Below are positions 1 to 62,357 of a stretch of DNA of 64,000 nt, in pieces. The notes beneath the pieces are model-generated. The model ran no database searches. It was not told where the DNA came from and was given only the letters and a program-made list of their open reading frames with translations. Position numbers and translations under genes: made by a program. How positions within the stretch are numbered: position 1 is the first letter of the stretch; every line of letters begins with the position of its first letter. The DNA is from Prorocentrum cordatum (Eukaryota): NCBI GenBank assembly GCA_963575745.1, contig CAUYUJ010000207.1, positions 1 through 64,000 on the forward strand. Direction: 5' to 3'.

Positions 1-1203
1 GAGGATGGCAGTTCCTGGACCTGGACAACAGTCGGTGTTTCCTCGTGCGCATCGAGACGCACGCCGGCTTCTGATGTGCTGTACCCCGAGGTGGGAGGAG
101 AAAAGGACACTTGAGTCAAAATATTTGCGTTCCCAGTGGAAGTGGAAGGAGGCCTCGAAACTGACACGATTAGGCAGTACTAAGGGGCAGGCGACGGGTG
201 AACATCCTTGGTGTTTCATGTTCCAGACGATATTTCCCTAGTTTGTGAATCTGGAGGATCGGTGGTGGAGGGCGTGCTCTTTCTCTTACTCTGACTTCGT
301 TCAGTATTGCAGGCAGTTCCTGGAAGCTTGTACTTTGGGTTCTTTGTTTGACTTGTTTGTTGTCCGTGGAGGAACTGGAGGACGAGGAAACTACATAAAG
401 GAGAGGGGGGAGGAGATGATGGCTCGTCCGTTGTCGGTGAAGGAGTCTGAGAAGCTGGCCCAGAGATTGGCCTCGAACAATGAACAGGAGCCGACTTGGG
501 ATCTGAGTGATGACGGGATCGGTCTGGAGCTGACGGGAGATTCGCTTCTTATCTGTAATTGGATCAACGGTCTCTGGTAGGTTGAGGGTGGAGAAGGAGG
601 AGATGGGGCTTCTTATCGTAGGCGGGTTGCAAATATTATTTCTCTGTTGGAAGAATTGGAGGAGGAAGGAGTACGACCCCCCTCATGGGGCAACGACTTT
701 ATTCGACACATATATCGGGAGAGTAACACAGTAGCTGATGAACTTACCCATCTAGCACGGGAAGGCCAGATATTCAGAGAGCTGTTCCACCACCGTATCT
801 TTCGCCCTGATGTTCAAGACAACTTTCGAGTTATTGGCCTCCGCGGATCCTTCGACGGCGGAGTGTGTGCCCAAGGTGTGGGCGTCGGCTGGTTTCTGCA
901 GATTGGATATATCCCTCGCTTCCATGATCCGTACCCTGACCCTGAACATATAGATAAGAGAGCTCGGGTAGTCTCCCTCTTCCCCCAAGCCTCCTCTCCT
1001 TGTCCAATCATATGGGAAGTAGTAGGGCGTTGTGCACAGGCACTCCCCTCCATAGCAGTATCACTGACGCTGAGCTTTCGGGTCTCGAGGGCCTCTTGCG
1101 GGCCGCAGCCCAGGTGGCCCAAGACCTCCAGCTGCAGAGAGACTAGGTAGGCACTTAACGGGCGCTGGGGCGCTCGGTGCCTGGTCAGCCTCCCCAAAAA
1201 AAA
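1..1203 (+). mobile_element. 3' fragment of a degenerate non-LTR retrotransposon (LINE-0): permuted RNase H region and 3' tail
   Basis: Broken ORFs 5-241, 245-580 and 647-1150 carry LELTGDSLLICNW, HIYRESNTVAD and LRGSFDGG..GVGVGW, matching the other LINEs. The A-rich tail joins GAGGTTGACGGTTTACCGCCGG. Confidence 0.85.
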
Positions 1204-6900: not shown

Positions 6901-8326
6901 CGCCCAGCCTACAATTGATCCAATGGAAATGGATGGTGCAGTGTCTCTTCATATGGATGGGATGTCTCAGAATGCGGGTGCTACTGTACCGATTACCACG
7001 GATTTGATGTCTCAGAATGCGGGTGCGAGTGTACCGATTACCACGGGTTCGATGTCTTTGAATGCGGGTGCTGCTGTACCGAGCACCGGAGATCTGAAAC
7101 GACGGAGAGTGACTGTTATTGTGGCCCCTGTCCTTACTGCCCGAGGGGACCTCACTGTTGCTCTGCCTGAGGGTCTGGAGAACAGCGCCACGAGTCAGAA
7201 CCGACGACGGCTTATCTCTCAGGCGTCCCGTGCTGCTGCCAAAAGGAGCAGGAATGCTCCCACATCATCAACGCCATCATCATCATCAGCCCCTACACCA
7301 GCGCCAGCTGCCATGCGAAGAAGGTTTCGAAGTGATATGGTGGGGGCGAGTGCGGATGACCCTTTCTTGCAGGCCCGTTACACGATGATGCATGCCGCCA
7401 GCCCGTGGACTCAGCAGATGGATGCCGTTATTCGCACATATAACTCGCAGGAAGCACGATCCTTTACACGTCGAAGGGAAGGTGGAAAAACAGTGGGACT
7501 TCGTCCGTGGGGCTTGCCTTTTGAAACGGTGGGTGGAGATGCTTGGTATGATACTCTTGAGTGGACTCAGGCAGGGTGGAGATGTTTTATCCGTACGTTG
7601 CTTTCGGAATGGGACCTACAACATGTTTTAGAATATGCTCACCTGCCTGAACCAAAACCCTGGAGGCAGAAAAACGACGAGGAGGAGGTGGAGGGGACGG
7701 AGGAGAGAAATAATGAGATTGCAAAGCGGCTCGCCTATAACTTCGAGAATGCCAGCGTCTGGAACTACGAGGCTGAAGGGGTTCCCGTCGAGCTCTGTGG
7801 TGACTCCCAGGTGGTAGTGAACTGGCTGGTGGGACAATATGTATGTACGACGGAAGTGTATTGTGAGACCATTGCACACATTCAAAGTATATTATACAGA
7901 CTACACTTGAACTACCGCGTGAATCTGAGGCCGCCGTCTTGGGGTTTAGATCCTTGGAAGTGGTTTTATCGTGAGGGAAATGAGCGTGCTGATGCTGAAA
8001 CTTGGAAGGCCCGCGCGGGCCAGAACCATCGTACTTTCGACCCGTACATTCATACTCTCAGAAGGGAACAAATAAAGGGGATTCGCGGCTACTTCGATGG
8101 TGGTCGGTCCTCCCACGGTGTTGGCATTGGTTGGGTCATTGACTTATTCGTGCTCCCCCTCCCTGCTCTTCAACACTCTCAAGGCTCTTGGCTATTCAAC
8201 ATAGCCTCCGAGGCTGCCGCCATCCCGCCGACCTGCACGGTTAGTCAAGCTGAGCTCTTGGCCAGCAAGCGCCTCGCTGAAGGTGTCGAGCACCTGCTGC
8301 TCCTCTGCTGCGGACCTGAATCCTGA
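3956..8326 (+). pseudogene. LINE ORF2 (APE endonuclease, RT, permuted RNase H) with premature stop
   Basis: Motifs SWNV, LLQE, SDH, LDVYRAFD and WADN (6221-6232). TAG at 6107-6109 where copy 2 has TGG. APE DAN changed to DAS. Net 72 bp shorter than copy 2 near 5430. Confidence 0.9.
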
Positions 8327-8886: not shown

Positions 8887-10709
8887 AGGGGAGCCCCCAG
8901 AGCTCCAGAAGCGCTTCACGAGAGCGTCCGAGGGCCCCCAGGAAAGCTTTCCGGCGTGTATTCGAGCTCTAGTTTTCCCACCATATTCGATCTAATTCCC
9001 GCTCGCCATCTTGATCTCAGCTCGATCGGGTGAATATTTCATCAAAAAAGCGTCGCGGCGGGATCGGCTGTTTCGAGTCATCTTGATACGCGTTGTCGGC
9101 ATTTTGTTCTTAACTCGAGCTGTAGGGCAGCTACAGAGCTCATTATCACAGACATCGATTGCGAATCATCAGGCGCGTTCGTCTGTCCCATCCAGAGGTC
9201 TGATCTCGGTAACTCGTAGAGCTTCCCTTAGCAAGTTATTGCTGGAAGCTTCAGAGTAATTCTGGGGCGCTGGAGAGCTAGTTGGCAAGAAAAATCTCGA
9301 CGGACCTTTTGGTGACTTTCGGTCGGTTGAAAATTTTGTTTTCGAAATTCCCTAATTCGTTTGAGCTCTAGTATTTTTTCCCCTGATATTCGATCAAATT
9401 CCCGCTCGCCATCTTGATCTCAGCTCGATCGGGTAGCTTTTACTGCCAAAAAGCACACTGGCGGGATCGGCCGTTTCGAGTCATCTTGTCACGCGCTGTC
9501 GGTTTTCTCAAGATAACTCGAGCTTCAGGACAGCTACAGAGCTGGTGAGCACAGCTAATCGATTCAGAATGATCAGGCGCGTTCGCCTGTTGAAGCCAGA
9601 GGTCTGAACTCGGTCTGCTAGCCGAGCTAGGTCCGCAAACCTATTCGTATTATTCGAGTCATCTTGACAGACACTCTCGGTTTTCTGTACTTAACTCGAG
9701 CTAAAGGACAGCTACAGAGCTGATACGTACAGAAATCTGATTCAGAATGATCAGTGGCCGTTGTCTGTTGAATCCAGAGCTCTGAACTCGGTCTGCTGCC
9801 CGATCTAGAATCGCGAAACTATTCGTATTGTTCGAGTCATCTTGAGAGATGCTGTCGGTTCTCTGCACTTAACTCGGGCTGTAGGGGGGCTGCATGGCTG
9901 GTAATCATTGGAATCGATTCGGAGACATCAGGCGCGTCCGCGTGTCGAATCCAGAGCTCCGAACTCTGTCTGCTGCCCGAACTAGGTCCGCGAAGCTATT
10001 CGTATTGTTCGAGTCATCCTGAGAGGTGCTGTGGGTTTCCTGCACTTAGCTCGGGCTGTAGGGGGGGCTGCAGGGCTGGTAATCACAGGAATCGATTCAG
10101 AGACATCAGACGCGTATGCAGAGGTCTGAACTCGGTCTGATACTCGAGCTAGGTTTGCCCAACTATTCGTATTGTTCGACTCATCTTGAGAGGTGCTGTC
10201 GATTTACGCACGTAACTCGGGCTGTAGGAGAGCTACAGAGCTCGTACAGAAGACAATCCAGAAGCATCGGGGGCGTTCGGCTGTTGCATCCGAGAGGTCT
10301 GAAATTGCCTGGGCTGAAAAAATATTTTTGCTGTGTAATTTTTTTCGACATTACATGTTGTCAGGAAGTCTACGAGTCCCCCGGCGGTAACAAAGGTTGC
10401 TCAAGGCGTGGTTGCTCATCGCATCCGACAGGGGTTTTAAACTCTGCCTGGACCTCGCCTCCAGTTTAGAGCCCCTACGCCAGCAAAGCTTTTGTTTCGC
10501 TTACGTTACAAGGCACACACGCAGTCAAGCGCTGACTCCGTGACAGGCATCACGGTGCCCGATCTTTGCACTCTCGCCAGTTTTCAATCAGCTGAATCCT
10601 GTTGTGCACTCAGGACGCGTTACAGATAGCAGATTCATCTTGGTTGTGGCAATTTCTTCCGTTGCACTTGTACTTTGTCTCTTTGCCTCGTTCTCTTTCA
10701 CATTGCAGT

Positions 10710-11882
10710 ATGGAGGAAATGACAAAAGAAGAGGAGTTGGACATCGAAGGTATGGGAGGGGATGATCTTCATAGCAAGATCCGTGGGGGTATACCGCCAG
10801 GTCTCTTGGATGCAGCAGCGGGGGCAGCAGGTGGACTTCTGGAGGAAGAAAAGGATACCAAACGTCGTCGTCAGAGTGAGTTGGCACGGCGGCAGCGTGA
10901 GCAGGCATTGATTCAACAACAACAACAGCAGCTGAATCCTCAGCTGGCGGCACTCTCGCAGTTGCTCGATTCGAAGTTTGCCACACAAAAGGAGAATTTC
11001 CAGTCTATCATGCAGGGTGAAGTTGCGCCGATCAAACTGAAGTTGGAAGAGCATAGTACCGATTTGCAACGTCTGAATGCACAGGTGCAGTCACAGCAGA
11101 GACAGTTAGAAGCCCTCCAGAGTAAAACCAATGCCGATGCATCAACAGTTGCTTCATCCCGTGGGACTGGGTCGGGGAATCCAGGCTTCCAGTTCCAGGG
11201 TACTCGTGGTGAGTTTGGTCTCAAGGGTCCGAGGCCAACCTTCCAACCAACGATGATAACTATAAAAGGATGGGCACGCACAGCGTCGGAAGAACTTCAT
11301 AAACGATCCAAGGCCTTACTCCCTGGTGCGGTTGCCCAGCGCCTCCTGGCGACTCTATTTCAAAAAGCGAATTGCTTGGCGCACGTGGATGAGATAAAAA
11401 CGAATGATGAGAACAGTAAGAACCCCATGGGATGTTATCAGCTCAAGATATGCTTCAAAGCCACGGCGACGAAGGATAGGATGTGGGATTTTCGCAAAGT
11501 GTTCATTCAATGTTTCGAGCAGAAAGCCATCTTTGAGGACCCACACGATGCGACCACGTATAATCACATCTGTGATGAAAGGATCACGGTTACGGTGGAG
11601 GCCTCTCCATGGCAAGAACCGCACATCAAAGCTGCTGGCAAATTCAAGGCCCTATTTTATAAGCATCGTTCGTGTGCCAGCGCCTTTGTAAAGGTGGAAA
11701 AATATGGACCCCCAGCCACGTTTCTGTGGGCTTACCCGTCCGAGCAGCAGCTGCAAAAGGGACAGTGTGTTGCCTCGTGGAAGCCTGATCGTGCAGTGGG
11801 TTGGAAGATTGATGAGGATATGATCAAGGAAGTCGATCCAAACTTCAATCTGGGGGATTTCAAAGCTGATCTCATGAGTTGA
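10710..11882 (+). CDS. LINE ORF1 protein, 390 aa (coiled coil plus conserved C-terminal domain)
   Basis: ATG at 10710 follows a pyrimidine tract ending GCAG. Motifs FQPTMITIKGW, VEASPW..PH and GPP are shared with the ORF1s at 28701, 41495 and 47290. Confidence 0.85.
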   Translation: MEEMTKEEELDIEGMGGDDLHSKIRGGIPPGLLDAAAGAAGGLLEEEKDTKRRRQSELARRQREQALIQQQQQQLNPQLAALSQLLDSKFATQKENFQSIMQGEVAPIKLKLEEHSTDLQRLNAQVQSQQRQLEALQSKTNADASTVASSRGTGSGNPGFQFQGTRGEFGLKGPRPTFQPTMITIKGWARTASEELHKRSKALLPGAVAQRLLATLFQKANCLAHVDEIKTNDENSKNPMGCYQLKICFKATATKDRMWDFRKVFIQCFEQKAIFEDPHDATTYNHICDERITVTVEASPWQEPHIKAAGKFKALFYKHRSCASAFVKVEKYGPPATFLWAYPSEQQLQKGQCVASWKPDRAVGWKIDEDMIKEVDPNFNLGDFKADLMS

Positions 11883-14800
11883 CGGTGCCCTGGCAAGTGG
11901 CACGAACAATTGGCTGAGGTTGATCGCTCAATTTTCAGCTGGAACGTTCGTTTGCTAGGGATTGCACAATGCCACGAGATTTGCGCCCAGGTTTTCAATT
12001 CAAGCACTGTGATTCTCCTTCAAGAATGCCAGTTTGTCTCCGACCGTGTTGCTGAGGAACACGGTTGGAATCTTTGGCGCTCCTCTTGTGAGCGAGCTTG
12101 CGTGGGCCTCAGAGGTGTTTGGAAGGATGATGTCCAACACGAGGCCAGAGGCGACCGTTGGGTTGCCGTTGTTTGCTCTAATGCCATCTTTCTCTCTCTC
12201 TACTTGCCTCATAAGTATTTGCATGGAAAGTCTCGTGAGCAGTTTTTGCGTACGCTTAGTGTATACCAGGAAGTGCTGAGGGATGCAGCGCTCAATGTTG
12301 CCAGATTAAAAAAGCAGTTTCGAATTCAGGATGTTGTTTTAGGAACTGATGCTAACGTTGAGGTTGAGCCTCAGGTTTTCCACATGTCTCAGGCTGTCTC
12401 GGGTTCTAGTGTTGTTGGTGTGCCCATTGTCCCTCGTACGAGGGATGGCGGATTTCAGAGGCGATCTAAGGAGTTTGCCTTGGAACTCAGTGAGGCTCTT
12501 ACTTTCACTATGGGCACCCTGGGCCTCCAGTTGGCCAACACCTTCAACCCTACGAGGCTCCCTACCTGGCGCTCTGCTAAATGGGCTCACTACAGGCACC
12601 TACCTCGAGAACAGCAGTACTCTCATGTCTACGACTACATAGGTGTACCATCGTCTTGGGGAGCTCCTGAGGTCTCCGTCTTGTGGCCACAGCCGGGGGC
12701 AGCACATATGTCTGGGAGCTCGGCCTCGAGCTTTTGGAGTGATCATGGTCTGCTACACTTGCGTATCCCTGCTCGTGTCTTGCCTCGTCGAGTTGTGCGT
12801 CCCGATCCTGTCCGCAACACACGTTGGCACGTTCAGTCTCATCGTGTACCTATTTTGCGCTATGCAGTTGATGCAGCCCTGGTGTCTGGCAACAGCCGGA
12901 CAGATCAGACCGATTGGAGTGGACACACGGGTCTCTCGCCCACGGAGCTAGGTGACAAGATCCGACAGCCTTGTGAGGAAATCGGCGGGGTCCCCACCAA
13001 AGCCGACCTTACCCCGAAAGTTTCTGAGCAGTATGTTGCCGCTCGGGAGGCTGCACTTGAGATGAGGAGGAAGAGAAATAAGGGTGAATGCACGGAGGAG
13101 GAGTTCAAGAAGGCGAGGAGGAGGTACAGATATGAGAGGAGGAAGCATGGGAGGAATATCTTGGAGTATGAGTTCCGTCCAGGCCTACAGCATCGGACAT
13201 ACCTTAAGACGCTCAAGGTTGAGGGAGTGCACACTTGGGACAAGTCTAAGTGGGAGATGGCCCTCAGAGCGCACGGTTTGGCCATGTACACTGATGAACA
13301 TGAGCGTGCACGCACAAACAGTAAGCTGGAGGAGATGAGGAAGAGGTTGCAGGAGGCTTCAGGCAAAATAAGAGCAGAGGAGAAAATTGAAGCACAGGTT
13401 GAGACAAGATGGCCGGCGCGCCTGACAAGACCTCTGCGCGAATACCAGCCTATCGATATCGGCCTGCTCATGCGTGCTAGGTCTCGTCTTCGTTCAGGAA
13501 AGGCCGTAGGTAAGGACAACATCAGCGTCTCCATGCTTAAGCACATCCCTTGGTCAGGTTGTCTTCAAGTCTTGCGGTGCTTTCAGCAGCTGTTTATGCG
13601 CGAGTATTGCACACCCACAGAATGGCGCCATATATGTATACAGCTGATGCCGAAGTCTGTGAAGACTTGCGAATTCAATGACACACGAGCTTTGTCATTA
13701 TTATCTTGCCTGTCAAAATGGTATATGTCATGTCTCACCTTGTTGGCCGTGGACCATCTCAAACGGAGTGTTGCCCTCGAGGTCATGCTCTTCGGGTTTG
13801 TTGCTGGAAGACGGACACACGAGATTACTGGTGGTTTGAAGAGAGTTGCTCAGCACGCGACGGAATGGGGGAAGTCATATTGTGTGCACATGGCGAGCTT
13901 AGACGTGTATCGTGCTTTTGATAACGTACAGGTGGCCGACGTTGCTGACTGCCTGGAGGAGTTGAGGTTCCCACCTGAACTTAGTTATGCGCTCGTGGAG
14001 GGCCTAGCTGAGAACAGGGCCGATTTATCCTTCCAGCAGGTGGACGTATCGGACATAGCTTGGGATAGTTGTATCCGCACAGGTAGTGTTGAGGCTCCGC
14101 TCTTTTGGCTGTGTGAGAGTGTGCTCATGTTCCGTCCTGTGGTATTGAGTTGGCAGGAGCGGGGGATGGGAGTGCAGTTGACGCAGCAGGCAGGGACTCG
14201 TCATCTTACACATGCGATTTGGGCCGACAATGTTCTGTTGTGTGCCAGAGATCAGAGCGAGTTGACGACCATGATTGCGGAGATCAGTGTCCCACTTTAT
14301 CACAGAAAGTACAGATGGAAACCGAGTAGCTTGCAGTTTATTCGCTTTGGCTATGATGAGCCTGGGATTGAGAGTTTGGATGTCTCCTTTGCGTTGCCGA
14401 ATTCCCTGGACAAGCGTCAGAGAGTGACTATAACGTTGCAGCGGACAGATCGTTTGGAAATACTTGGCACGATTCTTGAAAACAGCATGCGACAACATGA
14501 GGACTTAAATCATCGGATTTCTCTCGCTCAAAAGGCGTTTTGGCAAGATAAGAGGTATTACATGTGCCAGGGTATTAAGTTGAAGAAAAGATTGCGGCGA
14601 TATGACTCACGTGTAAGAAGCCGATTATTGTTTGCAGTGGAAGGGATGACAGCTGACAAAAATGCGATTGAATCAATTCATGCGTTTGAAGGCCGCTTAC
14701 TTTCGAAGATGGTGTGGAGACGGAAACGTGACACTGAGAGTTGGCCACAGTTTTTTCAGAGCGTGTACTTGACGGGGCGGAAAGCACTCAGGACAGCTCA

Positions 14801-16325
14801 GATGCCGAGTGCAGTTCAGCTCTTTCTTTTCAAACAGTGGAGTTGGGCAAAGGATGTGGCGACGACAACTGCTCAAAACGGGATCCGCCGAGTTGATGAC
14901 GCCCAGCCTACAATTGATCCAATGGAAATGGGTGGTGCAGTGTCTCTTGATATGGATGGGATGTCTCAGGATGCGGGTGCTACTGTACCGATTACCACGG
15001 ACTTGATGTCTCAGAATGCGGGTGCGGTCGTACCGATTACCACGGGTTCGAGGTCTTTGAATGCGGGTGCTGCTGTACCGATTATCGGAGATCTGAAACG
15101 ACGGAGGGTGACTATTATTGTGGCCCCTGTCCTTACTGCCCGGGGGGACCTCACCGTTGCTCTGCCAGAGGGTCAGGAGAACAGCGCCACGACTCAGAAC
15201 CGACGACGGCTTATCTCTCAGGCGTCCCGTGCTGCTGCCAAAAGGAGCAGGAATGCTCCCACATCATCAACGCCATCATCATCATCTGCCCCTACACCTG
15301 CGCCAGCAGCCATACGAAGAAGGTTTCGAAGTGATATGGTTGGGGTGAGTACGGACGACCCTTTCTTGCAGGCTCGTTACACGATGATGCATGCCGCCAG
15401 CCCGTGGACACAGCAGATGGATGCCGTTATTCGCACATATAATTCGCAGGAAGCACGATCCTTTACACGTCGAAGGGAAGGTGGGAAAACGGTGGGACTT
15501 CGTCCGTGGGGCTTGCCATTCGAGACGGTGGGTGGAGATGCTTGGTATGATACTCTTGAGTGGACTCAGGCAGGGTGGAGATGTTTTATCCGTACGTTGC
15601 TTTCGGAATGGGACCTACAACATGTTTTAGTGTATGCTCACCTGCCTGAACCAAAACCCTGGAGGCCGAAAAACGACGAGGAGGAGGCGGAGGGGACGGA
15701 GGAGAGAAATAATGAGATTGCAAAGCGGCTCGCCTTTAACTTCGAGAATGCCAGCGTCTGGAACTATGAGGCTGAAGGGATTCCCGTCGAGCTCTGTGGT
15801 GACTCGCAGGTGGTGGTGAACTGGCTGGTGGGACAATATGTATGTACGACGGAAGTGTATTGTGAGACCATTGCGCACATTCAGAGTATATTATACAGAT
15901 TACACTTGAACTACCGCGTGAACCTGAGGCCGCCGTCTTGGGGTTTAGATCCTTGGAAGTGGTTTTATCGTGAGGGAAACGAGCGTGCTGATGCTGAAAC
16001 TTGGAAGGCCCGCACGGGCCAGAACCATCGTACTTTCGACCCGTGCATTCATACTCTCAGAAGGGAACAAATAAAGGGGATTCGCGGCTACTTCGATGGT
16101 GGTCGTTCCTCCCACGGTGTTGGCATTGGTTGGGTTATTGACTTATTCGTGCTCCCCCTCCCTGCTCTTCAACACTCTCAAGGCTCTTGGCTATTCAGTA
16201 TAGCCTCGGAGGCTGCCGCCATCCCGCCGACCTGCACGGTTAGTCAAGCTGAGCTCTTGGCCAGCAAGCGCCTCGCTGAAGGTGTTGAGCACCTGCTGCT
16301 CCTCTGCTGCGGACCTGAATCCTGA
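11883..16325 (+). CDS. LINE ORF2 polyprotein: APE endonuclease, reverse transcriptase (WADN), circularly permuted RNase H
   Basis: Open frame of about 1480 codons. APE motifs: SWNV, LQE, YLP, DAN, DY, SDH. RT motifs: GKAVGKD, LMPK..RALSLL, FGF, LDVYRAFD, IRTG, WADN. RNase H motifs in the order GDS, REGNERAD, FDGG, AE. Confidence 0.93.
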   Translation, partial: RCPGKWHEQLAEVDRSIFSWNVRLLGIAQCHEICAQVFNSSTVILLQECQFVSDRVAEEHGWNLWRSSCERACVGLRGVWKDDVQHEARGDRWVAVVCSNAIFLSLYLPHKYLHGKSREQFLRTLSVYQEVLRDAALNVARLKKQFRIQDVVLGTDANVEVEPQVFHMSQAVSGSSVVGVPIVPRTRDGGFQRRSKEFALELSEALTFTMGTLGLQLANTFNPTRLPTWRSAKWAHYRHLPREQQYSHVYDYIGVPSSWGAPEVSVLWPQPGAAHMSGSSASSFWSDHGLLHLRIPARVLPRRVVRPDPVRNTRWHVQSHRVPILRYAVDAALVSGNSRTDQTDWSGHTGLSPTELGDKIRQPCEEIGGVPTKADLTPKVSEQYVAAREAALEMRRKRNKGECTEEEFKKARRRYRYERRKHGRNILEYEFRPGLQHRTYLKTLKVEGVHTWDKSKWEMALRAHGLAMYTDEHERARTNSKLEEMRKRLQEASGKIRAEEKIEAQVETRWPARLTRPLREYQPIDIGLLMRARSRLRSGKAVGKDNISVSMLKHIPWSGCLQVLRCFQQLFMREYCTPTEWRHICIQLMPKSVKTCEFNDTRALSLLSCLSKWYMSCLTLLAVDHLKRSVALEVMLFGFVAGRRTHEITGGLKRVAQHATEWGKSYCVHMASLDVYRAFDNVQVADVADCLEELRFPPELSYALVEGLAENRADLSFQQVDVSDIAWDSCIRTGSVEAPLFWLCESVLMFRPVVLSWQERGMGVQLTQQAGTRHLTHAIWADNVLLCARDQSELTTMIAEISVPLYHRKYRWKPSSLQFIRFGYDEPGIESLDVSFALPNSLDKRQRVTITLQRTDRLEILGTILENSMRQHEDLNHRISLAQKAFWQDKRYYMCQGIKLKKRLRRYDSRVRSRLLFAVEGMTADKNAIESIHAFEGRLLSKMVWRRKRDTESWPQFFQSVYLTGRKALRTAQMPSAVQLFLFKQWSWAKDVATTTAQNGIRRVDDAQPTIDPMEMGGAVSLDMDGMSQDAGATVPITTDLMSQNAGAVVPITTGSRSLNAGAAVPIIGDLKRRRVTIIVAPVLTARGDLTVALPEGQENSATTQNRRRLISQASRAAAKRSRNAPTSSTPSSSSAPTPAPAAIRRRFRSDMVGVSTDDPFLQARYTMMHAASPWTQQMDAVIRTYNSQEARSFTRRREGGKTVGLRPWGLPFETVGGDAWYDTLEWTQAGWRCFIRTLLSEWDLQHVLVYAHLPEPKPWRPKNDEEEAEGTEERNNEIAKRLAFNFENASVWNYEAEGIPVELCGDSQVVVNWLVGQYVCTTEVYCETIAHIQSILYRLHLNYRVNLRPPSWGLDPWKWFYREGNERADAETWKARTGQNHRTFDPCIHTLRREQIKGIRGYFDGGRSSHGVGIGWVIDLFVLPLPALQHSQGSWLFSIASEAAAIPPTCTVSQAELLASKRLAEGVEHLLLLCCGPES

Positions 16326-20028: not shown

Positions 20029-22122
20029 TAACTCGAGATAGAGGACAGCTACAGAGCTGGTAAGCACACCTTATCGATTCAGAATGATCAGGCGCTCTCG
20101 TCTGTTGCATCCAGAGGTCTGAACTCGGTCTGCTAGCCGAGCTAGGTCCGCAAACCTATTCGTATTATTCGAGTCATCTTGACAGGCGCTCTCGGTTTTC
20201 TGTACCTAAATCGAGCTATAGGACAGCTACAGAGCTCATACGTACAGCAATCGATTGAGAATCATCAGTCGCGTTCGTCTGTTGAATCCAGAGCTTTGAA
20301 CTCGGTCTGCTGCCCGATCCAGAATCGCGAAACTGTTCGTATTGTTCGAGTCATCTTGAGAGGTGCTGTCGGTTTTCTGTACTTAACTCTGGGTGTAGGG
20401 GGCTTACAGTGCTGATGGTGACAGCAATCGATTTGGAGACATCAGGCGCGTCCGCCTGTGAAACCCAGAGCTCGGAACTCGCTCTGCTGCCGGAACTAGG
20501 TCTGCGAAACTGTTCGTATTGTTCGAGTCATCCTAGAAGATGCTGTCGGCTTTCTGCACTTAACTCGGGCTGTAGGGGGGCTGCAGTTCTGGCAATCACA
20601 GGAATCGATTCGGAGAGATCAGACGCGTCCGCCTGTCGCATTCAGAGGTCTAAACTCGGCCTGATACTCGAGCTGGCTTTGCCAAACTATCCGTTTTGTT
20701 CGAGTCATCTTGAGAGGTGCTGTCGACCAACGCACGTAACTCGGGCTGTTGGAGAGCTACAGAGCTCGTACAGAAGACAATCCAGAAGCATCGGGGGGCG
20801 TTCGGCTGTTGCATCGAGAGGTCTGAAATCGCTTAGGCTGAAAAACTATTCGTTCTCTGCATTTTTTCGACATTATATGTTGTCAGGAAGCTCTACGAGT
20901 CCCCCGGCGGTAAGAAAGGTTGACGGTTTACCGCCGGCGCCCAGTAATTCCGGGGCGCTGGAGAGCTAGTTGGCAAGAAAAATCTCGACGGACCTTTTGG
21001 TGTTTTTTGGTCGGTTGAAAATTTTGTTCTCGAAATTCAACCATTCGTTAGAGCTCTAGTATTTTTTCCCGTGATATTCGACCTTATTCCCGCTCGCCAT
21101 CTTGATCTCAGCTCGATCTGGTAGCTTTTACTGCCAAAAAGCACTGCAGCGGGATCGGCCGTTTCGAGTCATCTTGATACGCGCTCTCGGTATATTGGAT
21201 TTAACTCGAGATACAGGACAGCTACAGAGCTGGTAAGCACACCTTATCGATTCAGACTGATCAGGCGCGTTCGTCTGTTGCATCCAGAGGTCTGAACTCG
21301 GTCTGCTAGCCGAGCTAGGCCCGCAAACCTATTTGTATTATTCGAGTCATCTTGACAGGCGCTCTCGGTTTTCTGTACTTCACTCGAGCTATATGACAGC
21401 TACAGAGCTGATACCTACAGAAACCGATTGAGAATCATCAGTCGCGTTTGTCTGTTGAATCCAGAGCTCTGAACTCGGTCTGCTGCCCGATCTAGAATCG
21501 CGAAACTATTCGTATGGTTCGAGTCATCTTGAGAGGTACTGCCGGTTTTCTGTACTTAACTCGGGTTGTAGGAAGGCTAGAATGCTGGTAATCACAGCAA
21601 TCGATTTGGAGACATCAGGCGCGTCCGTCTGTCGAATCCAGAGCTCGGAACTCGGTCTGCTGCCCGAATAGGTCCGCGAAACTATTCGTATTGTTCGAGT
21701 CATCCTGAGAGGTGCTGTCGGTTTTCTGCACTTTAACTCCGGCTGTAGGGGGGGCTGCAGGGCTGGTAATCACAGGAATCGATTCGGAGACATCAGACGC
21801 GTCCGCCTGTCGGTCTGATACTCGAGCTAGATTTGCCAAACTATTCGTACCATTGAGTCATCTTGAGAGGTGCTGTCGATTTACGCACGTACCTCGGGCT
21901 GTAGGAGAGCTACAGAGCTCGTACAGAAGACAATCCAGAAGCATCGGGGGCGTTCGGCTGTTGCATCGAGAGGTCTGAAATCGCTTGGGCTGAAAAACTA
22001 TTCGTTCTCTGCATTTTTTTCGACATTATACATTGTCAGGAAGCTCTACGAGTCCCCCAGCGGTAAGAAAGGTTGACGGTTTACCGCCGGCGCCCAGTAA
22101 TTCCGGCGCGCTGGAGAGCTAG

Positions 22123-23336
22123 TAACTCGTAGAGCTCCCCTTAGCTAGTTGTTGGAAGCTTAAGAGTAATTCCGGCGCGCTGGAGAGCTAGTTGGCAAGA
22201 AAAATCTCGACGGACCTTTTGCTGACTTTTGGTCGGTTAAACATTTTGTTCTCGAAATTCAACAATTCGTTTGACCTCTAGTATTATTTCTGACCATATT
22301 CGATCTATTCCCGCTCGCCTTCTTAATCTCAGCTCGATCGGGTAAATATTTCTGCCAAAAAGCGTCGCGGCGGGATCGGCTGTTTCGAGTCATCTTGATA
22401 CGCGTTGTCGGTATTTTGTTCTTAACTGGAGCTGTAGGGCAGCTAGAGAGCTCATTCTCACAGGAATCGATTTCGAATCCTCAAGCACGTTCGTCTGTTT
22501 CATCTAGAGGTCTTAACTTGGTCTGATGCCCGAGCTAGGTTCGCGAAACTATTCGTATTGTTCGAGTCATCTTGAGAGGTGCTCTTAGTTTTCTGCACTT
22601 AACTCGGGCTGTGGGGAGGCTATGGGGCTCGTACGCACAGAAATCGATTCGGAGACACCAGGCGCGTCCGCCTGCCAAATGCAGAGCTCAGAACTCGGTG
22701 CGCTGCCGGAGCTAGGTTCGCAAAACTGTTCATATTCCTCGAGTCATCTTGAGAGTTGCTGTATTTTTTCTGCAAGCTCGAGCTGTAAGGGGGCTGCAGG
22801 GCTGATAATCACTGGAATCGATTCGGAGACATCAACCGCTTCCACTTGTCGCATTCAGAGCTCTGAACTCGGTCGGCTGCCCGAGCTAGATCCGGGAAAC
22901 TATTCGTATTGTTCGAGTCATCTTCAGAGGTGCTGTCGGTTTTCTGCACTTAACTCGGGCTGTAAGGGGGGCTGCAGGGCTGGTAATCACAGGAATCGAT
23001 TCGGAGACATCAGGCGCGTCCGCCTGTCGCATTCAGAGGTCTGAACTCGGTCTGATACTCGAGCTAGATTCGCGAAACTATTTGTACCATCGAGTCATCT
23101 TGAGAGGTGCTGTCGGTTTTCGCACGTAACTCGGGCTGTAGGAGAGCTACGAAGCTCGTGCGCACAGAACACGATCCAGCAGCATGAGGGGCGTTTGGCT
23201 GTTGCATCGAGAGGTCTGAATTCGCTTAGGCTGAACAAATATTCGTTCTCCGCAATTTTTTACATTATATATGGTCAGGAAGCTTTACGAGTCCCCCGGC
23301 GGTAAGAAAGGTTGACGGTTTACCGCCGGCGCCCAG
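22123..23336 (+). mobile_element. Helitron2-like family A element
   Basis: Same termini. Flanks rejoin GAGAGCTAG|CTGGCAAGAAAAATC. Confidence 0.75.
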
Positions 23337-26853: not shown

Positions 26854-26866
26854 TTGGCAAGAAAAA

Positions 26867-32500: not shown

Positions 32501-33561
32501 TATATTGTGTACTGCTTCTCATGAGGAAATATCTTCGACGCAACGTACGTGGAGAGATCACCACATGACTACTGTTGCATACGGCCCACTGTGGGACAGG
32601 CTCAGGACGGATGCGTCTGAGTGCCTGCGGGGTATGTTTCACTTCCAGGAGGCTTCAGCTAAAATGGAGACATGTTAGCTCAGGTCGAGCTATTGGCCAG
32701 AGATGCTGGCTATTTTCTTTCTGCGAATTCTACGGACTCAAATGGTGGGAGTCCTTTGTGCCGACAGATGCTGCGTATGTTCAGTTCTGCGAACACATGT
32801 GTACACGGACGATTCTGAGTTATTTTCAGAAAAGAAAAGGGTACGGTACAACAGGTGGGGCCCTGCAGGAGGTACATACCATCGCACAAAACGACCTACA
32901 CACCTATGGGGCCCAAGAGGGCACTGCGGCTTTCAACGACAAGCTGGCCAAGCGTATTGCGTTACAAAATATGAAGGAGGTTGAGTACGACCTCGACTCA
33001 TTTGGGATCCCTGTGTACATTTCTGGGGACAGTCTTCTGGTGGTGTCTTGGCTGCAGGGTGTCTGGAGGGTGCTTAATCGTACTTATCAGGATAGGATCA
33101 ACAGAATGATAAACCAACTTGACAACATGTGTCAGAGGTTTGGAATTAGGCCTGCCTGTCATGGGAGGGAAATTGTCGACCACACATATAGGGAATGGAA
33201 CACGCGTGCAGATGTACTCACTCATACGGCCCGTGTCGGGCCACCAGTGATTCGAGATAGGATAGGGCTTCACGCCCCTCAGTTACAACAGGTGTTTCGC
33301 GTTTGTGCCATCAGAGCTGGATTCGATGGTGGTGTCTCTTGCGACGGCGTGGGAGTCGGGTGCTGGATAGATGTTGGACGGGTATCGAGGCTCTCAAGGC
33401 AGCCACTCAGCCATGATATTATTTGGACGGAGGTGTACAGTGCGGCACTCTCGATTGATCCAACTTCAACAGTGACTGATGCCGAGGTCTCGGCCGTTGA
33501 GCATACGATTATAATCTTGCCGCGGGTTGTACAAGCGTATTTCGGACAGGATATGATGTGA
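29592..33561 (+). pseudogene. LINE ORF2 (APE-RT-permuted RNase H), disrupted
   Basis: Motifs GSWNL, VQE, SDH, ADIKQAFD, IRTGGPEGP and WAEN (31839-31850). Stop at 30066-30068 and a frameshift near 32650-32680. Confidence 0.88.
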
Positions 33562-45800: not shown

Positions 45801-46888
45801 TGATATTGCACTGGAATTTCGCAAAAGACATTGCAAGTTTCGCAAATGGCATGATTGTTGAGAAAGTGATTGACTTGAAGGCGGCGGAGAGGACATGGCG
45901 CGATTCCCGTATGGCGAGTTTATGTTTTGGACCGTACACTGACCGCACTCGTACACTTATGAGCGAGACGATGAGACACTTTGGCAACTGGTCGGAGGCC
46001 TCTTCTTACAAACGTCGCTGTCGAGGTACGGAGAGTATTGGACAGAGATCATGGCAATATACATTAGCTGAGTTTTTCGGAGATGATTGGTGGATTCATT
46101 TCACAGGCTCCCAGCTTGGATTTATGCAATACGCCACGCACCTTTGTACTCATAGCATGCTTCAATGTTTCCAGGAGGTGTCGACGTGCGGACCTGTGAG
46201 TTCGCCCGCATATTTGGCGCCCTCCGAGCATGGTGAAATCCAGGTGAGCACGGATGATAGTCCGATGGCTGCTGAGAAACTTGCAAAGCGCATCGCTCTT
46301 CATAATATGAAAGCAACCCGTTGGAACCTGGAGGCCCCTGGAATCCCTCTGGAGGTGGTGGGTGACTCGCTTCTCGTGGTTAGCTGGGCTACGGGACGGT
46401 GGCGTGCAGATAATAGATCATATGCGGATAGAATATCAAAAATTATCAATACGCTTGATGGGCTTTGTTGCAGCTATAATATACGACCTCCAGCGCCGGG
46501 TATGGATCTTATTCGTCATGATTTTCGGGAGTGGAACACTCGTGCCGACGTTCTAACACACCAGGCCCGAGAGGGCCAGATTTCTAGTTCAGAATGTAGT
46601 CCGTATACACATGATTATGAGACAGAATTTTACGTTGCTGCTGCTATTCGGGCTGGTTTCGATGGCGGCGTGTCGTCTGAGGGATGTGGGTGCGGTTGCT
46701 GGATAGACATAGGCCTCAAACCTCGGTATTGGGATCGACGGGACCCCGCTCAGCTGATATGGAAGTCAGTTTTTGAGAGGGCTTGGCTTATTTCTCCGAC
46801 CACAACTGTTACTGATACAGAACTCAGTGCTTTGGAGTGCATCGTGACTGCGCTCCCACAGGCAGTTCTATGGTTATCACAGACTTGA
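42899..46888 (+). CDS. Intact LINE ORF2: APE, RT (WADN), permuted RNase H
   Basis: Motifs GTWNV, LQE, AYFP, DAN, LDY, ADH, MDIYQAFD, IRTGGPEGP, WADN (45155-45166), GDS, REWNTRAD, FDGG and TE. Confidence 0.92.
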   Translation, partial: QKRYWSKGLRIGTWNVGNSGVSNSRGTEVLTSLRKIGASSIFGLQECEFFDSAELDRLGWHFKPSRDRRAGLLYAHGWAQLLRECVTDCDRFVLGVFGTEASQVIICSAYFPHHDRDQCDLESAEMLGELEGQIRLLKQKYRQASFCLLADANVELPPLVQLEVAGQGYAATGTGTKSWRRTGSEGKAERERKDRRQILTDNLLTFMQTWGLLAANTFDRRRPTWEPWGQERNRSRTRSMRRVLDYVMVPMGWEVQECKIDFKYRSGGTHNRSRLADHALVMCTVRQSSPGRTDWTVERVHREPSLVGWRAQTYADEMIGRERVDLEFCGAVFAGCGSPPAASTRPQDVTETAPVILKAFTQEDVDYSTASAARPPAPTRPPELTRLEERIRSLQNGPEKKRLRAAANVWRRQYRRDLLEWAVPPTRRKIRHRIKHVVVDGWETEDRYILKEKLEEHVKGKVTSQRRREENSNLMEEIRRKAEVEIKGGQIIRSITMSICCAARTRLRTRRATGPDRVPCEMLKLLPWCTVRHIQQIFDSLLRLVVQYPVRWRDILIAYMPKLKGITNLADARLLCLQNSITRWFSACVVILVEQHVEESKLFHPLGLYGFRQGHSTSHITSSLTNMCMHGDKWGKRECLYVADMDIYQAFDNCTIQNVHKGLEHARVPAYLQHAFLDPLSHSTGCLYYDGLEIDNIQWDTCIRTGGPEGPLGFNLIIAAMWGDVIHNWDVQGMGYAVDFGTEHRSVVNHFIWADNVYLVSRSREELTRMVRDLTLPLYNFSMRWKPTSLKYMVCGAPAVLDEDGNIPRSMDLKIPIFSDACDGRNAVQQIDELCYRRVVSMDVLGTQLHSEYNCSVHRDVSFRLDCARRAFYSQAGYFRSHCIPLKDKLRRYQDRVQSLALYGMETTTADSYTLSFLHSFEGKCLKMMISSRKGPTETEQAYQQRRYHVARERFLKAGYSSLVQRYLILHWNFAKDIASFANGMIVEKVIDLKAAERTWRDSRMASLCFGPYTDRTRTLMSETMRHFGNWSEASSYKRRCRGTESIGQRSWQYTLAEFFGDDWWIHFTGSQLGFMQYATHLCTHSMLQCFQEVSTCGPVSSPAYLAPSEHGEIQVSTDDSPMAAEKLAKRIALHNMKATRWNLEAPGIPLEVVGDSLLVVSWATGRWRADNRSYADRISKIINTLDGLCCSYNIRPPAPGMDLIRHDFREWNTRADVLTHQAREGQISSSECSPYTHDYETEFYVAAAIRAGFDGGVSSEGCGCGCWIDIGLKPRYWDRRDPAQLIWKSVFERAWLISPTTTVTDTELSALECIVTALPQAVLWLSQT

Positions 46889-51600: not shown

Positions 51601-52852
51601 TGTTGGGATTGGGCTAAGGATGTCTCAGTTGCTGCAAGTATTCGTATGAGGAGATACACAACACACACAGAGGAGGAGGAGGGAGAGACGGTACCAAATC
51701 GGCGTCAGAGGAAAACTCGGGCGATGGCGGCGGCGGCGACTTCTCAAACATATCATGTAACTCAGATATCCCAGATGTCGAGTGGCTGTCGCCGGCGTAC
51801 ACCAGATGACCAGCCTGCCATACCTGAGGAGTCGGACATGTCACGTGAATGGATGATATCTAGGCTGGCCATGATTACATGGAAGGGGGAAGTGGACGGA
51901 ACATCGTGACACATGTATTCTAGCAATGCCTGTAAAAGATAGGAAGCAGCTGACACGCGTGAACGTAGGCGGCCGCCCCCGTGGACATACTGCGTGGGAC
52001 TGGTGCTTGTGCGATCTCTTTGGTTGTGAGTGGTACCTCTCATTCGACAGTTCCGCTGGGTCCCGTGAGAAATACTGCAAGCATTTGCTGACTGTGATTG
52101 GTATGCAACACTTGTTCGACTTGTTTGTTCTACCCAGGCCGCCTGGTGTGAGACATGTGAAGGCAGAGGAGGAGGAGGAGAGTGAGATGAATGAGAGGAT
52201 GAGCAAACGTATTGCCGCAAATTTTGAGAATGAAACGGAGTGGAGGTGTGAGAATATTGAGCGTCTTGGGATGGAGATCTTGGGAGATAGTAAGACTGTT
52301 GTAAACTGGATGTGTGGTGAGTGGCAGATTCGCAACAAGCAGTATGTACGACTGGTGGGAACACTACAAAATACGGTATCGATGCTGTCTGGATGGGGAC
52401 TGACCTCACCTGCATCGGGACAGAATCTGTATAAGCATTTCTTTCGTGAGGGTAATGAGCGTGCGGATAAATTGTCGTGGGAGGCCAGAGGTGGCCAAAC
52501 TATTACTCGCTGGTTTGCATATGATAAGTTCCTCAGTACTCGTAAGACTGCTCTCCGTGGTGCATTCGATGGGGGTGTCAGTAATGAAGGATGTGGAGGT
52601 GGGTGGTGGCTTCAGATTGGCGTTGTAGGTAGGGGTTCCAGCGTGCAGGTTGATTTTCCCATCTCCTCCTCCTCCTCCTCCTCCTCCTCTTCCTCCTGCA
52701 CCAGCTCGCACAGCTTCCATTGGCACGATGTGGCCGAGGAGGCGATGAGCTTGCCTCCTGGTAGCACGGTAACCTGCTGTGAACTAGCTGCCTGCGCTGC
52801 CCTGACGAGAGCTGCTGCTAAGGTGGCGTGCGCTCTGCTACGACCTACCTAA
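48673..52852 (+). pseudogene. LINE ORF2 (APE-RT-permuted RNase H) with one frameshift
   Basis: Motifs ASWNV, DAN, SDH, LDILQAFD, IRTGGVEGP and WADN (50980-50991). Frameshift at about 51890-51925 before the RNase H part (51926-52852). Confidence 0.88.
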
Positions 52853-59127: not shown

Positions 59128-62100
59128 GGCGAGGAGGGAGGTGCAGTCGATTCTGGAAGGTCTGGCATCGAAGCTCAACCAGTCCCAGTGCGTGAGCATC
59201 ACCATGCATGACATCTTGCGAGCGAGGGCTCGCCTCAAGAGTGGGGCGGCTGGACCTGACCAAGTGACACGGGAGATGCTGCAGCTCATCCCCTTTGCCA
59301 GCCTCAAGACAATCCGACATCATTTCAGCCTGATCGCTAATCGTCGTCAACAGGTCCCCTCGGATTGGAAGAGGTTTCTGGTAACTCTCATCCCGAAGGC
59401 GCCGTCCATTCAGGAGCTCTCAGAGACTAGGGCGATCTGCCTCCTGAGCCTGGTCCAGAAGTGGTACAACCATGTCCTAGTCATTAAAGGGGAACAACAT
59501 CTGGTGAATATCAAACACTCTCTTAACATGTATGGGTTTGTGCAGTTCAGGAAGGTTTCTGAGGTCACATCGTTTACCAAACATCTTTGCCAACATGCGG
59601 CACAATGGGGAAAAGGGGAGAAGCTCTATCTGGCCAGCCTCGATGTACTCCAGGCGTTTGACCACGTTACTATCAAGCTAGCGTTACAAAGTATGGAGAA
59701 GCTTGGTTTTGACCCCGCTTTGATTTATGCCCTTCTTTGTCCTATGACCGAAAACACGTGTAAAGCCACCTTCGAAGGGACCCAGAATTTGGATTGGATT
59801 GGTTGGGATCGGAGTATCAGGACGGGCGGGGTGGACGGACCATTCATATTCAAAGTGGTGAGTGTGGCCTTGTGGAATGATATCGTCGGGACCTGGCCAG
59901 GGCGTGATCTGGGTTATGTAGTCGAGTCCCCCGTTCCCATGCCCACTAGATCGACGATTTCACATGCCCTCTGGGCGGACAATTTGCTGCTGTACGCTAG
60001 AGATGAACGGCAGCTCAGGACCATGGTGACTGAGCTCACTCTCCCCCTGCTCCAGGCCGGCCTCAATTGGAAACCATCCTCTCTCAAGCTCATCCCCTTT
60101 GGCGTCAATGGCTCGAATGATGTAGTTCTTCATATCCAGGCCCACACGTATAAACTTGAATGCGTTAACACTTTGGACATCCTGGGTTACAGGTTGGACA
60201 GATATTGGACACAGCATAGCGATCTGCAGTTCAACTTGGATCGTGCCCGTGGGGCCTTCTTTGCCGACATTGAATATTACAGAAGTCATCGCATCCCGAT
60301 TGAGAGACGATTCCAGCGATACCGACTCCGTATCCAGAGTAAGCTACTTTTCGCAATTGAGGGGATGACGATTGACAACATCACGGCACAAAAAATATTC
60401 TCCTGGGAAGGAAAGTTATTAGCTATCATCGGAGGAAGGAGGAAAGGAGTGAATGAAGATTGGACGGTCTACCAAAAGAGGAGGTTCAAGTATGCTCGCG
60501 ACCAGTTCGCCAACCTTGGATTTCTGTCGGCGGTGGAACTCTTCATTCACAAGAACTGGCTCTGGGCCAAAGATGTCGCTTGCTTTGCCAGAGGCTTTGC
60601 GTGTCAAAATATCCCGACAGCTGCGCTGCACACGGACAGAGTACATGCTTTGTCTCAGAGTGTTTCGCCTGAGCCCCAGAGACCTGCGGCTATGTTTGAT
60701 AGCCGTGGGGGACTGACGGAGCACAAAAAAGATTGTCAACGTTCTTCTGGTCGTGTGTCGTCTGCGTCCAGTATAAGAGCTTCTTTGGAGCCGAACAAAA
60801 AGGATGCTCATTGTTCTTCTGGTCGTGTGTCGTCTGCGTCCAGAATAAGAGTTCCTTTGAGTGATCCGCTGCAGGTGGCGCATCTGTTAGAGTGCGCCAG
60901 GCTCCTGGAAGAAAGGAGCAGCCAGCGTGAATCCCAAGGCACTGTCAGTCCTGCGGCCACAGCCCCCCCAGTCGAAGGCGAGAGCGAACCCACGCCCGCG
61001 GCCAAGAACCGTCGCAGGCAGATTGTGGAGACCCGTCTGGCCGCCAGGGGAGAGAAGCGGTGCCCTGGCCCGAGTCTCACGGCGAGCCAGGAGGAGCTCG
61101 CCAAGCGTGTCAGACAGCCCCAGCGCCCATGCGACAAAAGAGATCGGGATGAAATATGTTCGCCGAGGGGCAGTCAAAAGAGACGGTGTATTGCTCAGGT
61201 GAATGATGACCCCATCGCTTCCGCCGATAGTCTGCCTGCTGCCCCACAGGGAAGTAAGCGACCACGGGACCTCCCCTCTTCTAGCCATGATAGTGAGCCG
61301 CGAGAGGCACGACCCTCTGGCGCAAACGTGAATGTCTTCAAACTCAACGCCTACTCTCAGGCGCGGTTGGGCATGATGCATGCGTCAGGTGACTGGGCCG
61401 CTCATCGTCGCGCGTTCGCTGCGCGCTCGAGGGATTCCCAGGCTGCTCTTCTTGGATGGCGTGGTGGTACTAAATACGTCGGCTGGAGAAAATGGGAAGA
61501 TGTCTTCATTGCGGATCAAGATGGCAACACTAAATGGTGGGAGACTATGACGTTTGGGAAAGAAGATTGGTCGATTTTCGTTGAGAAGTTGCTCAAAAGA
61601 TTGCACCTGCCCGCCATTCTTGACTATCTGGCCAAACCTAGAGTTTCGGTTGCCCGTACGGAGGAGGAGGAGACGAAAGTTAATAATGATAGGATTGCGC
61701 GTCGCATCGCTCATAACTTTGAAAATGAGACTATCTTTGACTATGAGGCGGATAAGATTCCATTTGAAATACTGGGTGATAGCTTGTGTGTGGTCCAATG
61801 GATAAGAGGGCACTGGAGGTGCACGAACATGGGCTATAATAACACCTTGGAGGCGGCACAAAACACTCTTGATGCTATAACGGACACCTGTTTGAGAACT
61901 GCGTGCGCGGGGGCTGACCCAATCAAACATCTTTATAGGGAGGGTAACAGTTATGCTGATGAACTCACGTGGGCTTGCAGAGCTTGCCCACACACATCGA
62001 AGAGAAACGAGTATCTTGCCCCTTTATATACTTCGAAAGTTTTAGGATTGAGGGGTTACTTCGACGGAGGCACCTCGGATATTGGGGCTGGGGGAGGCTG

Positions 62101-62357
62101 GTGGCTGCAGGCTTTTGTAGAACATAAAAATGCTATACAGTGTCACGTGATTGCCGAGGAGGCGTTTGGCCTCGATAGGGAGTCAACCGTGACGGTCTGT
62201 GAGTTAACGGCCGCCTCGAAGCTAATTCACGCAATCTCGCAGATTGCGTCTGTTATAGATAGCGTCTCACACGCTCGGTAGAGCCACTTGCGCCTGGTGG
62301 CCGCGGGGAGCACCGCTGCTTGCATGTGCTGGAGGACCCCACCGCAAAGCCCGCAAA
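59128..62357 (+). mobile_element. 5'-truncated non-LTR retrotransposon LINE-6 (family E): RT plus permuted RNase H
   Basis: Begins right after host AGAGCTCTACG. The frame is open to 62281 with LDVLQAFD, IRTGGVDGP, WADN (59972-59983), GDS, REGNSYAD, FDGG and CE. Tail CCGCAAAGCCCGCAAA joins AACCTGGTTGACGG. Confidence 0.9.

Follow-up and report, generated by a model that had tools for sequence, protein, structure and literature searches.

In this study we analysed a stretch of 64,000 nucleotides from Prorocentrum cordatum (contig CAUYUJ010000207.1, positions 1 to 64,000 of the forward strand), which we call the window. It is a field of long interspersed nuclear element (LINE) retrotransposons, every copy on the + strand, set within a 177-bp satellite. 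One of these elements has an intact second open reading frame (ORF2) at 11883-16325, and our main finding is that the C-terminal ~180-190 residues of its protein very probably form a genuine circularly permuted RNase H domain. By type the domain appears to be an archaeal-type RNase HI (aRNH, Pfam RVT_3) in a rotated variant, not a canonical member of that family. We also consider it rather likely that the domain is catalytically active and that it is undescribed so far.

The arrangement that we propose is as follows. The RNase HI fold would have been cut between α1 and β4, and its old termini would have been joined by a linker of ~19 residues. The catalytic residues then follow in the chain as D37, D100, D135 and E187, and these four carboxylates would meet at one two-metal site. 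As suggested by the known role of RNase H in retroelements, the domain would degrade the RNA strand of the RNA:DNA hybrid that arises from target-primed reverse transcription. Regarding the origin, the general route to circular permutants suggests that the domain may go back to a tandem RNase H whose first copy lost its first half and whose second copy lost its second half. Speculatively, entry into the fold at β4 instead of β1 might alter the placement of the nuclease relative to the polymerase. For the picture as a whole our belief somewhat outweighs our doubt: this would be the first natural permutant of a type-1 RNase H, active and long fixed in a large LINE lineage of aquatic protists, derived from a dual RNase H whose outer halves were lost, tethered at β4 and not at β1, and missed by standard domain models, and so scored as lacking RNase H.

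Motif order and conservation

The features of the domain are listed here with their window coordinates. Residues 1-210 of the domain correspond to window 15693-16322, and the strands and helices are those of the AlphaFold2 model described further below.

11883..16325, + strand: LINE ORF2, 1480 aa, intact
15675..15746, + strand: conserved helix leading into the domain (H115-138 of a 330-aa model, H2-18 of the 210-aa model)
15780..16013, + strand: first half, corresponding to the C-terminal half of RNase HI (β4 30-36, helices 39-46 and 54-72, β5 88-90, helix 97-107)
15798-15806, + strand: G36-D37-S38
15801-15803, + strand: D37, just after β4, equivalent to E. coli D70
15969-15992, + strand: R93-E94-G-N96-E-R-A99-D100, of which R93-E94-x-N96, the aRNH Arg motif, lies in the first half between β5 and helix 97-107
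15990-15992, + strand: D100, in helix 97-107, equivalent to E. coli D134
16014..16070, + strand: linker of ~19 residues, running from the end of the last helix, where the old C-terminus lay, to the start of β1, the former N-terminus
16071..16310, + strand: second half, corresponding to the N-terminal half of RNase HI (antiparallel strands 127-139, 142-153 and 165-177, helix 183-206)
16092-16103, + strand: F134-D135-G136-G137
16095-16097, + strand: D135, in FDGG on strand 127-139, equivalent to E. coli D10
16236-16253, + strand: T182-V183-S-Q-A-E187
16251-16253, + strand: E187, in TVSQAE on the C-terminal helix 183-206, equivalent to E. coli E48
16323..16325, + strand: ORF2 stop TGA, four residues past the end of the α1-equivalent helix, the new C-terminus that permutation would have made

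The motifs of the C-terminal domain come in the order GDS, REGNxxAD, FDGG and TxTxAE, followed by a stop, and in each copy the ORF ends 20-30 residues beyond the last motif. The initial annotation had read the order GDS, REGNERAD, FDGG, TVSQAE and stop from the sequence, and both an alignment of six window copies and a six-frame scan with hidden Markov models (HMMs) of the half-domains bear it out. It had also claimed that all four acidic residues are kept in the other LINE copies despite their divergence. In the six-copy alignment D37, D100, D135 and E187 are indeed invariant at 29-36% identity, as are G36, S38, R93-E94, N96, A99, F134, G136-G137 and T182-V183. The four carboxylates of a type-1 RNase H are thus all present, in the DG of β1, the AE of α1, the DS after β4 and the N-x-x-AD of the last helix. 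Before this last helix there is an arginine and not a histidine, R93, which is the same in all window copies. We assign the domain to the aRNH type because this invariant arginine of R-E-x-N is the aRNH signature; the choice between Arg and His separates archaeal-like RNases H from the fungal, metazoan and bacterial type, as stated in excerpts of PMC5348765. The earlier description of the domain as archaeal/bacterial-like can therefore be narrowed to archaeal-type.

The family is large, far beyond what chance would give. When a profile of the six copies was searched against 1.84 billion protein cluster representatives, 624 clusters were found at E<=1e-3, 218 at E<=1e-10 and 35 at E<=1e-30. Among the best 150, from which our conservation counts are taken, many align to the profile over its whole length, in a single stretch at the extreme C-terminus of proteins of up to 1455 aa with an RVT_1 domain. 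The four acidic columns are 96-99% conserved in the rows that cover them (D in 110/114, D in 133/136, D in 125/126 and E in 92/94), and the R-E-x-N columns hold R in 134/138, E in 129/138 and N in 135/137. Where a representative covers at least 150 profile positions (72 cases), the pattern is almost always D-D-D-E. Three relatives were found by the reverse transcriptase (RT) region alone, in which they are 70, 40 and 28% identical, and each of them closes with both halves in this rotated order. This suggests that the arrangement is ancient, as it is shared by RT relatives down to 28% identity.

These counts bear on the question whether the domain still cleaves its substrate. It could have kept a permuted RNase H-like fold, lost the ability to cut RNA:DNA hybrids, and now have a nucleic-acid-binding or structural role in ORF2. 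Many LINEs manage without an RNase H of their own (PMC5348765, excerpts), and the copy at 15693-16322 has a W before the YRE motif where 119 of 137 relatives have an H. On the other hand, the four carboxylates and the Arg and Asn of R-E-x-N are 93-99% conserved across clusters that are less than 50% identical, which is hard to account for if the domain does not cleave. Young copies also show an excess of synonymous differences, which likewise points to function. Between two 96%-identical copies in the window the domain has 12 synonymous and 5 non-synonymous codon differences, and over 2217 nt there are 50 and 30, respectively, a rough sign of purifying selection. We regard the loss of cleavage as improbable and prefer an active enzyme.

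Homology to RNase HI

When the PDB was searched with the family profile, the top five matches were all type-1 RNases H, namely 3u3g and 4h8k (LC11-RNase H1), 3aly and 2ehg (Sulfolobus tokodaii RNase HI) and 3hst (Rv2228c). In these matches domain residues 28-100 lie on chain residues ~70-132, with E 0.05-0.5. In Pfam, three of the six window copies have half-length matches to RVT_3 (E 0.04-0.25), with residues ~30-100 on positions 63-121 of the 123 of the profile. Of the 65 relatives with full coverage, 44 match RVT_3 at E<=1, and for 43 of them the best stretch places the C-terminal half of the profile (~57-123) on the first part of the domain. The RVT_3 gathering cut-off (21.6 bits) is passed by seven of the 65, in half-length matches only, and the copy at 15693-16322 reaches the cut-off of neither RVT_3 nor RNase_H. 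Since the colinear order of a type-1 RNase H and the Pfam threshold are both missed, we rate the domain as a permuted variant and not as a plain member.

For a comparison with canonical enzymes we used a profile of E. coli RnhA (rnhA, NC_000913.3 235535-236002) and 80 bacterial homologues. It contains bacterial RnhA only, because a search for RVT_3-type canonical sequences in E. coli and in five further genomes, proteobacterial and other, gave no matches. Aligned to these 81 sequences with hhalign, the first half of the domain gives E 4.7e-5. Single-sequence alignments of the halves to E. coli RnhA take the right registers with insignificant scores, which became better only with the 81 canonical sequences.

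A further comparison is the rotation of the whole domain, for which the columns of the family alignment were reordered with the second half before the first and aligned to the same profile. In its native order the family aligns over 80 columns to RnhA 59-146 with a score of 33.2. After rotation the alignment extends over 138 columns, with query 6-179 on RnhA 2-147, a score of 43.0, a probability of 90.3% and E 1.4e-6. None of 20 controls in which the columns of the second half were shuffled reaches 43.0 (range 30.8-34.3), and a reversed second half scores 30.3. In the rotated alignment the four conserved acidic columns coincide with E. coli D10, E48, D70 and D134. It had been predicted that swapping the halves in silico would restore a full-length RNase H, and the near full-length colinear alignment with all four catalytic residues matched agrees with this prediction. 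Each half is thus homologous to its counterpart and the rotated sequence is colinear with RNase HI over its length, which is what defines a circular permutant.

In two relatives the N-terminal half of a Pfam profile is recognised directly, downstream of the C-terminal half. In P0111, the remaining one of the 44, residues 162-220 match RVT_3 2-57 with 21.8 bits, which is above the cut-off, and this match follows the GDS and HNTWAD motifs. In P0073, RVT_3 107-123 is found at residues 71-87 and PF00075 6-56 then follows at residues 105-166.

Structure model of the domain

The AlphaFold2 model of residues 1-210, made from a 56-row alignment, is one compact domain with a predicted local distance difference test (pLDDT) score of 94.6 and a predicted template modelling (pTM) score of 0.91. 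This pTM indicates that both halves are placed confidently in one predicted body. The order of elements in the chain is not the colinear order of a type-1 RNase H but β4-α-α-β5-α, linker, β1-β2-β3-α1. When the model is read from residue 127 round to residue 107, it has the RNase HI order β1-β2-β3-α1-β4-α-α-β5-α, with the catalytic residues on their usual elements. From the model we strongly infer that the domain is equivalent to RNase H in three dimensions.

The single-chain model also speaks to the possibility that the domain is completed between two ORF2 molecules, one contributing the DS..AD half and the other the DG..E half, giving a domain-swapped or obligately dimeric RNase H. Such swapping would be conceivable with the permuted order and a linker of 19 residues, and the AlphaFold2 model was made from a single chain. 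This one chain nevertheless folds into a compact domain at the pTM given above. The linker, with a short strand at 112-115 and a short helix at 117-121, has block-mean pLDDT values of 93-98, and its length and these two small elements are conserved enough for confident modelling. We hold a dimeric enzyme to be unlikely and continue with a permuted domain that is complete within one molecule.

The region upstream and the search for spare halves

A further explanation is that the two halves are tandem truncated remnants of RNase H, or that they belong to a canonical domain whose missing half lies up- or downstream. An upstream DG/E half was named in the initial annotation as an observation that would speak against permutation, and we found none. 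Half-domain HMMs with all filters off detected no second half of either kind in nine window ORFs and 11 long relatives, and no tandem (dual) RNase H intermediate of the family was seen among these 20 long ORFs and proteins. In the six-frame scan of the window seven places were detected, each with a single DS..AD half and, after it, a single DG..E half, and nothing beyond these places at E<=1. Only one copy of each half is present, as expected of a circular permutant. A model of the last 330 residues (pLDDT 84) gives for the 120 aa upstream of the domain helices and one tiny hairpin, and the three-strand β-meander that was sought there is absent. The upstream helices are followed by a disordered acidic linker and then by a 24-residue helix into β4.

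This lead-in helix is what remains in favour of tandem remnants, as it is conserved before β4, has a mostly acidic position (E/D in 18 of 24 rows) and could descend from the α1 of a first copy now lost. However, no alignment of the helix to the α1 of RNase HI was obtained, the alignment beginning at RnhA residue 60, and such a descent is speculative. Hundreds of clusters moreover conserve both halves jointly, and in the model the halves form a single domain. Tandem remnants are therefore largely refuted already, and we give them very little probability beside a single permuted domain. The helix itself may be a connector peculiar to the family, or the remainder of a lost copy that can no longer be recognised. 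Its arginine R12 (15726-15728) is invariant in all 25 representative rows and in the six window copies, and may contact the substrate or the RT.

Upstream of this helix there is a conserved, mainly helical region of ~100 aa at 15333-15650 (ORF2 residues ~1151-1256), with recurring W/F positions and pLDDT 52-86. The acidic disordered linker lies between this region and the RNase H domain.

Limits of the evidence

Several observations weigh against the permutation, and most of them concern the second half. The copy at 15693-16322 has no Pfam RNase H match at all at E<=10. It had been foreseen that standard HMMs would see halves of the domain at most, and this copy as well as the 43 of 44 relatives whose best RVT_3 stretch is the C-terminal half fit that expectation. 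P0111 and P0073 are the only two among the 65 full-coverage relatives with a match to an N-terminal half. No N-half RNase H match (Pfam, E<=1) was found in 28 partial proteins, about 16 of which cover mainly the second half, and a five-sequence profile of the second half had no matches to PDB sequences at E<=10. The second half alone, aligned by hhalign to the 81 bacterial RnhA sequences, has a probability of 2.7%. In its favour, this alignment is in the right register (RnhA 2-66), and its score of 17.2 is above those of all 20 column shuffles (7.5-12.4). On the sequence data the homology of the second half is the weak link of the case for permutation.

Another point on this side is that the best structure matches bound to chain order are weak, generic α/β folds (RlmH, CinA and TolB N-domain-like) and not RNase H. 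In an order-bound Foldseek search of the PDB the best matches were PelC and ribosome hibernation factors, with RNase H not listed; with a TM score <=0.27 and a root-mean-square deviation of 7-14 Å we dismissed them as meaningless. RNase H turns up in order-bound structure searches via the first half alone. Searches of this kind would be expected to miss RNase H because the chain order is permuted. That the likeness of the motifs is convergent or due to chance, in an unrelated α/β fold such as those which head the sequential structure matches, is something we consider hardly credible.

Relation to known RNases H

With the archaeal-type RNases HI, such as those of S. tokodaii (2EHG/3ALY) and LC11-RNase H1 (3U3G/4H8K), the permuted domain shares the D-E-D-D carboxylates, the R-E-x-N-x-x-A-D motif with the aRNH Arg, GDS after β4, FDG(G/A) in β1 and the lack of a basic-protrusion helix. 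They also provide its best sequence matches in the PDB and in Pfam (RVT_3, PF13456). It differs from them in having the C-terminal half first, a ~19-residue linker and new termini between α1 and β4, and in the very low similarity of its second half to canonical sequences. E. coli RNase HI can be aligned colinearly over the full length after rotation, with D10, E48, D70 and D134 matched, but it is of the bacterial/fmRNH type, with His124, a basic protrusion and the canonical order.

RNases H are known from several LINE clades, among them I, Tad1, LOA, ingi and others. In these, too, the domain lies downstream of the RT and is presumed to remove the RNA template after target-primed reverse transcription. 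Unlike the permuted domain they have the canonical order of elements and are detected over the full length by standard HMMs. An archaeal-type domain at the C-terminal end of ORF2 has been described in plant Ta11-type L1 and in oomycete L1/Utopia LINEs (PMC5348765, excerpts). These, too, are non-LTR retrotransposons that have captured an aRNH-type domain and carry it behind the RT as the last part of ORF2. The permuted domain would descend from an archaeal-type RNase HI such as these LINEs acquired, and would probably act like it. In the plant and oomycete elements these excerpts give the canonical D-E-D-R/H-D order with a CCHC motif upstream, whereas the order is permuted here.

Dual RNase H domains occur in retroviruses and in Tat, Archon and Chronos long terminal repeat (LTR) elements (PMC4408406 and PMC5348765, excerpts of both). 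Their tandem domains are the starting state that the route of duplication and subsequent truncation needs. Both domains are whole in the dual elements, as far as the excerpts describe them, and one is degenerate, while in the LINEs of the window only the inner halves would survive, fused to each other.

The LINE copies of the window and their surroundings

The ORF2 at 11883-16325 begins with a weakly detectable APE-like (apurinic/apyrimidinic endonuclease-like) N-terminus, which is followed by an RT, a long variable stretch and, at the C-terminus, the permuted RNase H. The endonuclease signal comes from relatives, in which Exo_endo_phos is matched with E 2e-4 to 0.095. RVT_1 is likewise present in the other LINE copies of the window and in relatives. 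The RT in the same ORF and an ORF1 upstream are the features of a non-LTR retrotransposon ORF2.

10596-11882, + strand: ORF1, directly adjoining ORF2 on its upstream side
ORF2 residues 600-810: RT (Pfam RVT_1, E 6.7e-7)

A tblastn search of the window with the last 190 aa of this ORF2 found seven copies of the domain, all on the + strand: 15753-16322, 7754-8323 (98% identical), 61730-62245, 46322-46831, 52259-52786, 32986-33516 and 494-916. The last five of these are divergent, with 31-38% identity to the query, and include the broken copy 494-916 (LINE-0). The limits of the domain in the other copies are as follows.

497..1119, + strand: LINE-0, broken copy (first half 497-787, FDGG segment 827-943, E-helix segment 1042-1119)
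7760..8299, + strand: same domain in an older copy of the 11883-16325 family (halves 7760-8050 and 8057-8299)
32986..33531, + strand: same domain in a divergent LINE family (halves 32986-33240 and 33298-33531)
46319..46864, + strand: same domain in a divergent LINE family (halves 46319-46591 and 46640-46864)
52259..52828, + strand: same domain in a divergent LINE family (halves 52259-52522 and 52544-52828), with a Ser-rich insert that separates β2 from β3
61736..62248, + strand: same domain in a divergent LINE family (halves 61736-62014 and 62027-62248)

LINE-0 had been said to show the first three motifs in order before a frameshift, and this is correct. It has an in-frame stop within the first half and a frame change after the FDGG segment, and its E-helix segment lies in another frame.

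Some further features of the elements were observed. The copy at 3956-8326 is an older relative of 11883-16325, 96.1% identical over 2217 nt, and is broken by a nonsense codon at 6107-6109, where it has TAG and the intact copy TGG. ORF1 and ORF2 of two divergent LINE families are in the same frame, with only one stop codon between them (TGA at 11880-11882, TAG at 48670-48672). Because the ORF2s of these families have no ATG near the start, and their endonuclease-like motif begins 10-20 codons past the stop, this layout suggests stop-codon readthrough or reinitiation and not a separate start. Between the RT and the C-terminal region of ORF2 11883-16325 there is a low-complexity, internally repeated stretch at ~14900-15150 (residues ~1010-1090, units like ..DAGATVPITTDLMSQNAGAVVPITTG..). 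It explains much of the extra length of this 1480-aa ORF2 compared with the 1080-1329-aa ORF2s of other families. Among the relatives, P0147 (908 aa) has a truncated permuted domain joined to another region, which by its look we take to resemble a DAHP-synthase-type enzyme of aromatic amino-acid biosynthesis. A chimeric gene model, or else insertion into a host gene, is the probable explanation.

The 177-bp satellite makes up ~15.8 kb in 25 blocks, all in + orientation, within window 1383-64000. At 20029-28269 the blocks are ~830 bp long and are separated by spacers of ~330-380 bp. The satellite starts ~70-850 bp downstream of most ORF2 stops, for example at 16399 after the stop at 16325. Either the LINEs carry or target the satellite, or the array was built from 5'-truncated copies. 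Rfam had no matches in the window, and the 21-nt spliced-leader motif of dinoflagellates was likewise not detected. Among the sequencing runs listed as containing the sequence are marine, freshwater and plankton metagenomes and coded organisms, with no RNA data set, which points to an aquatic, probably planktonic eukaryote as the host.

Significance

RNase H is among the most studied folds, being a model of protein folding, an HIV drug target and the core of a huge superfamily of nucleases and transposases. We found no description of a natural permuted RNase H in the literature that we searched, which left most subscription journals outside its coverage. The main text of the classification of the RNase H-like superfamily in PMC3985635 contains neither "permut" nor "circular". 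The permutation is common to hundreds of related elements and apparently undescribed in print.

One consequence concerns annotation. Pfam misses the domain of the copy at 15693-16322 entirely, which makes for a blind spot: because the domain is missed, such LINEs would be counted as elements without an RNase H. This miscounting would skew statements on which LINE lineages depend on the RNase H of the host. If our interpretation is true, the domain is also a natural counterpart to the engineered permutants that serve studies of folding and evolution. It would likewise be a test case for the duplication-and-truncation route to permutation, in a system in which dual RNase H domains are known. For the retroelements themselves it would mean that the tether between nuclease and polymerase can be rewired, which bears on the spacing of the active sites along the hybrid.

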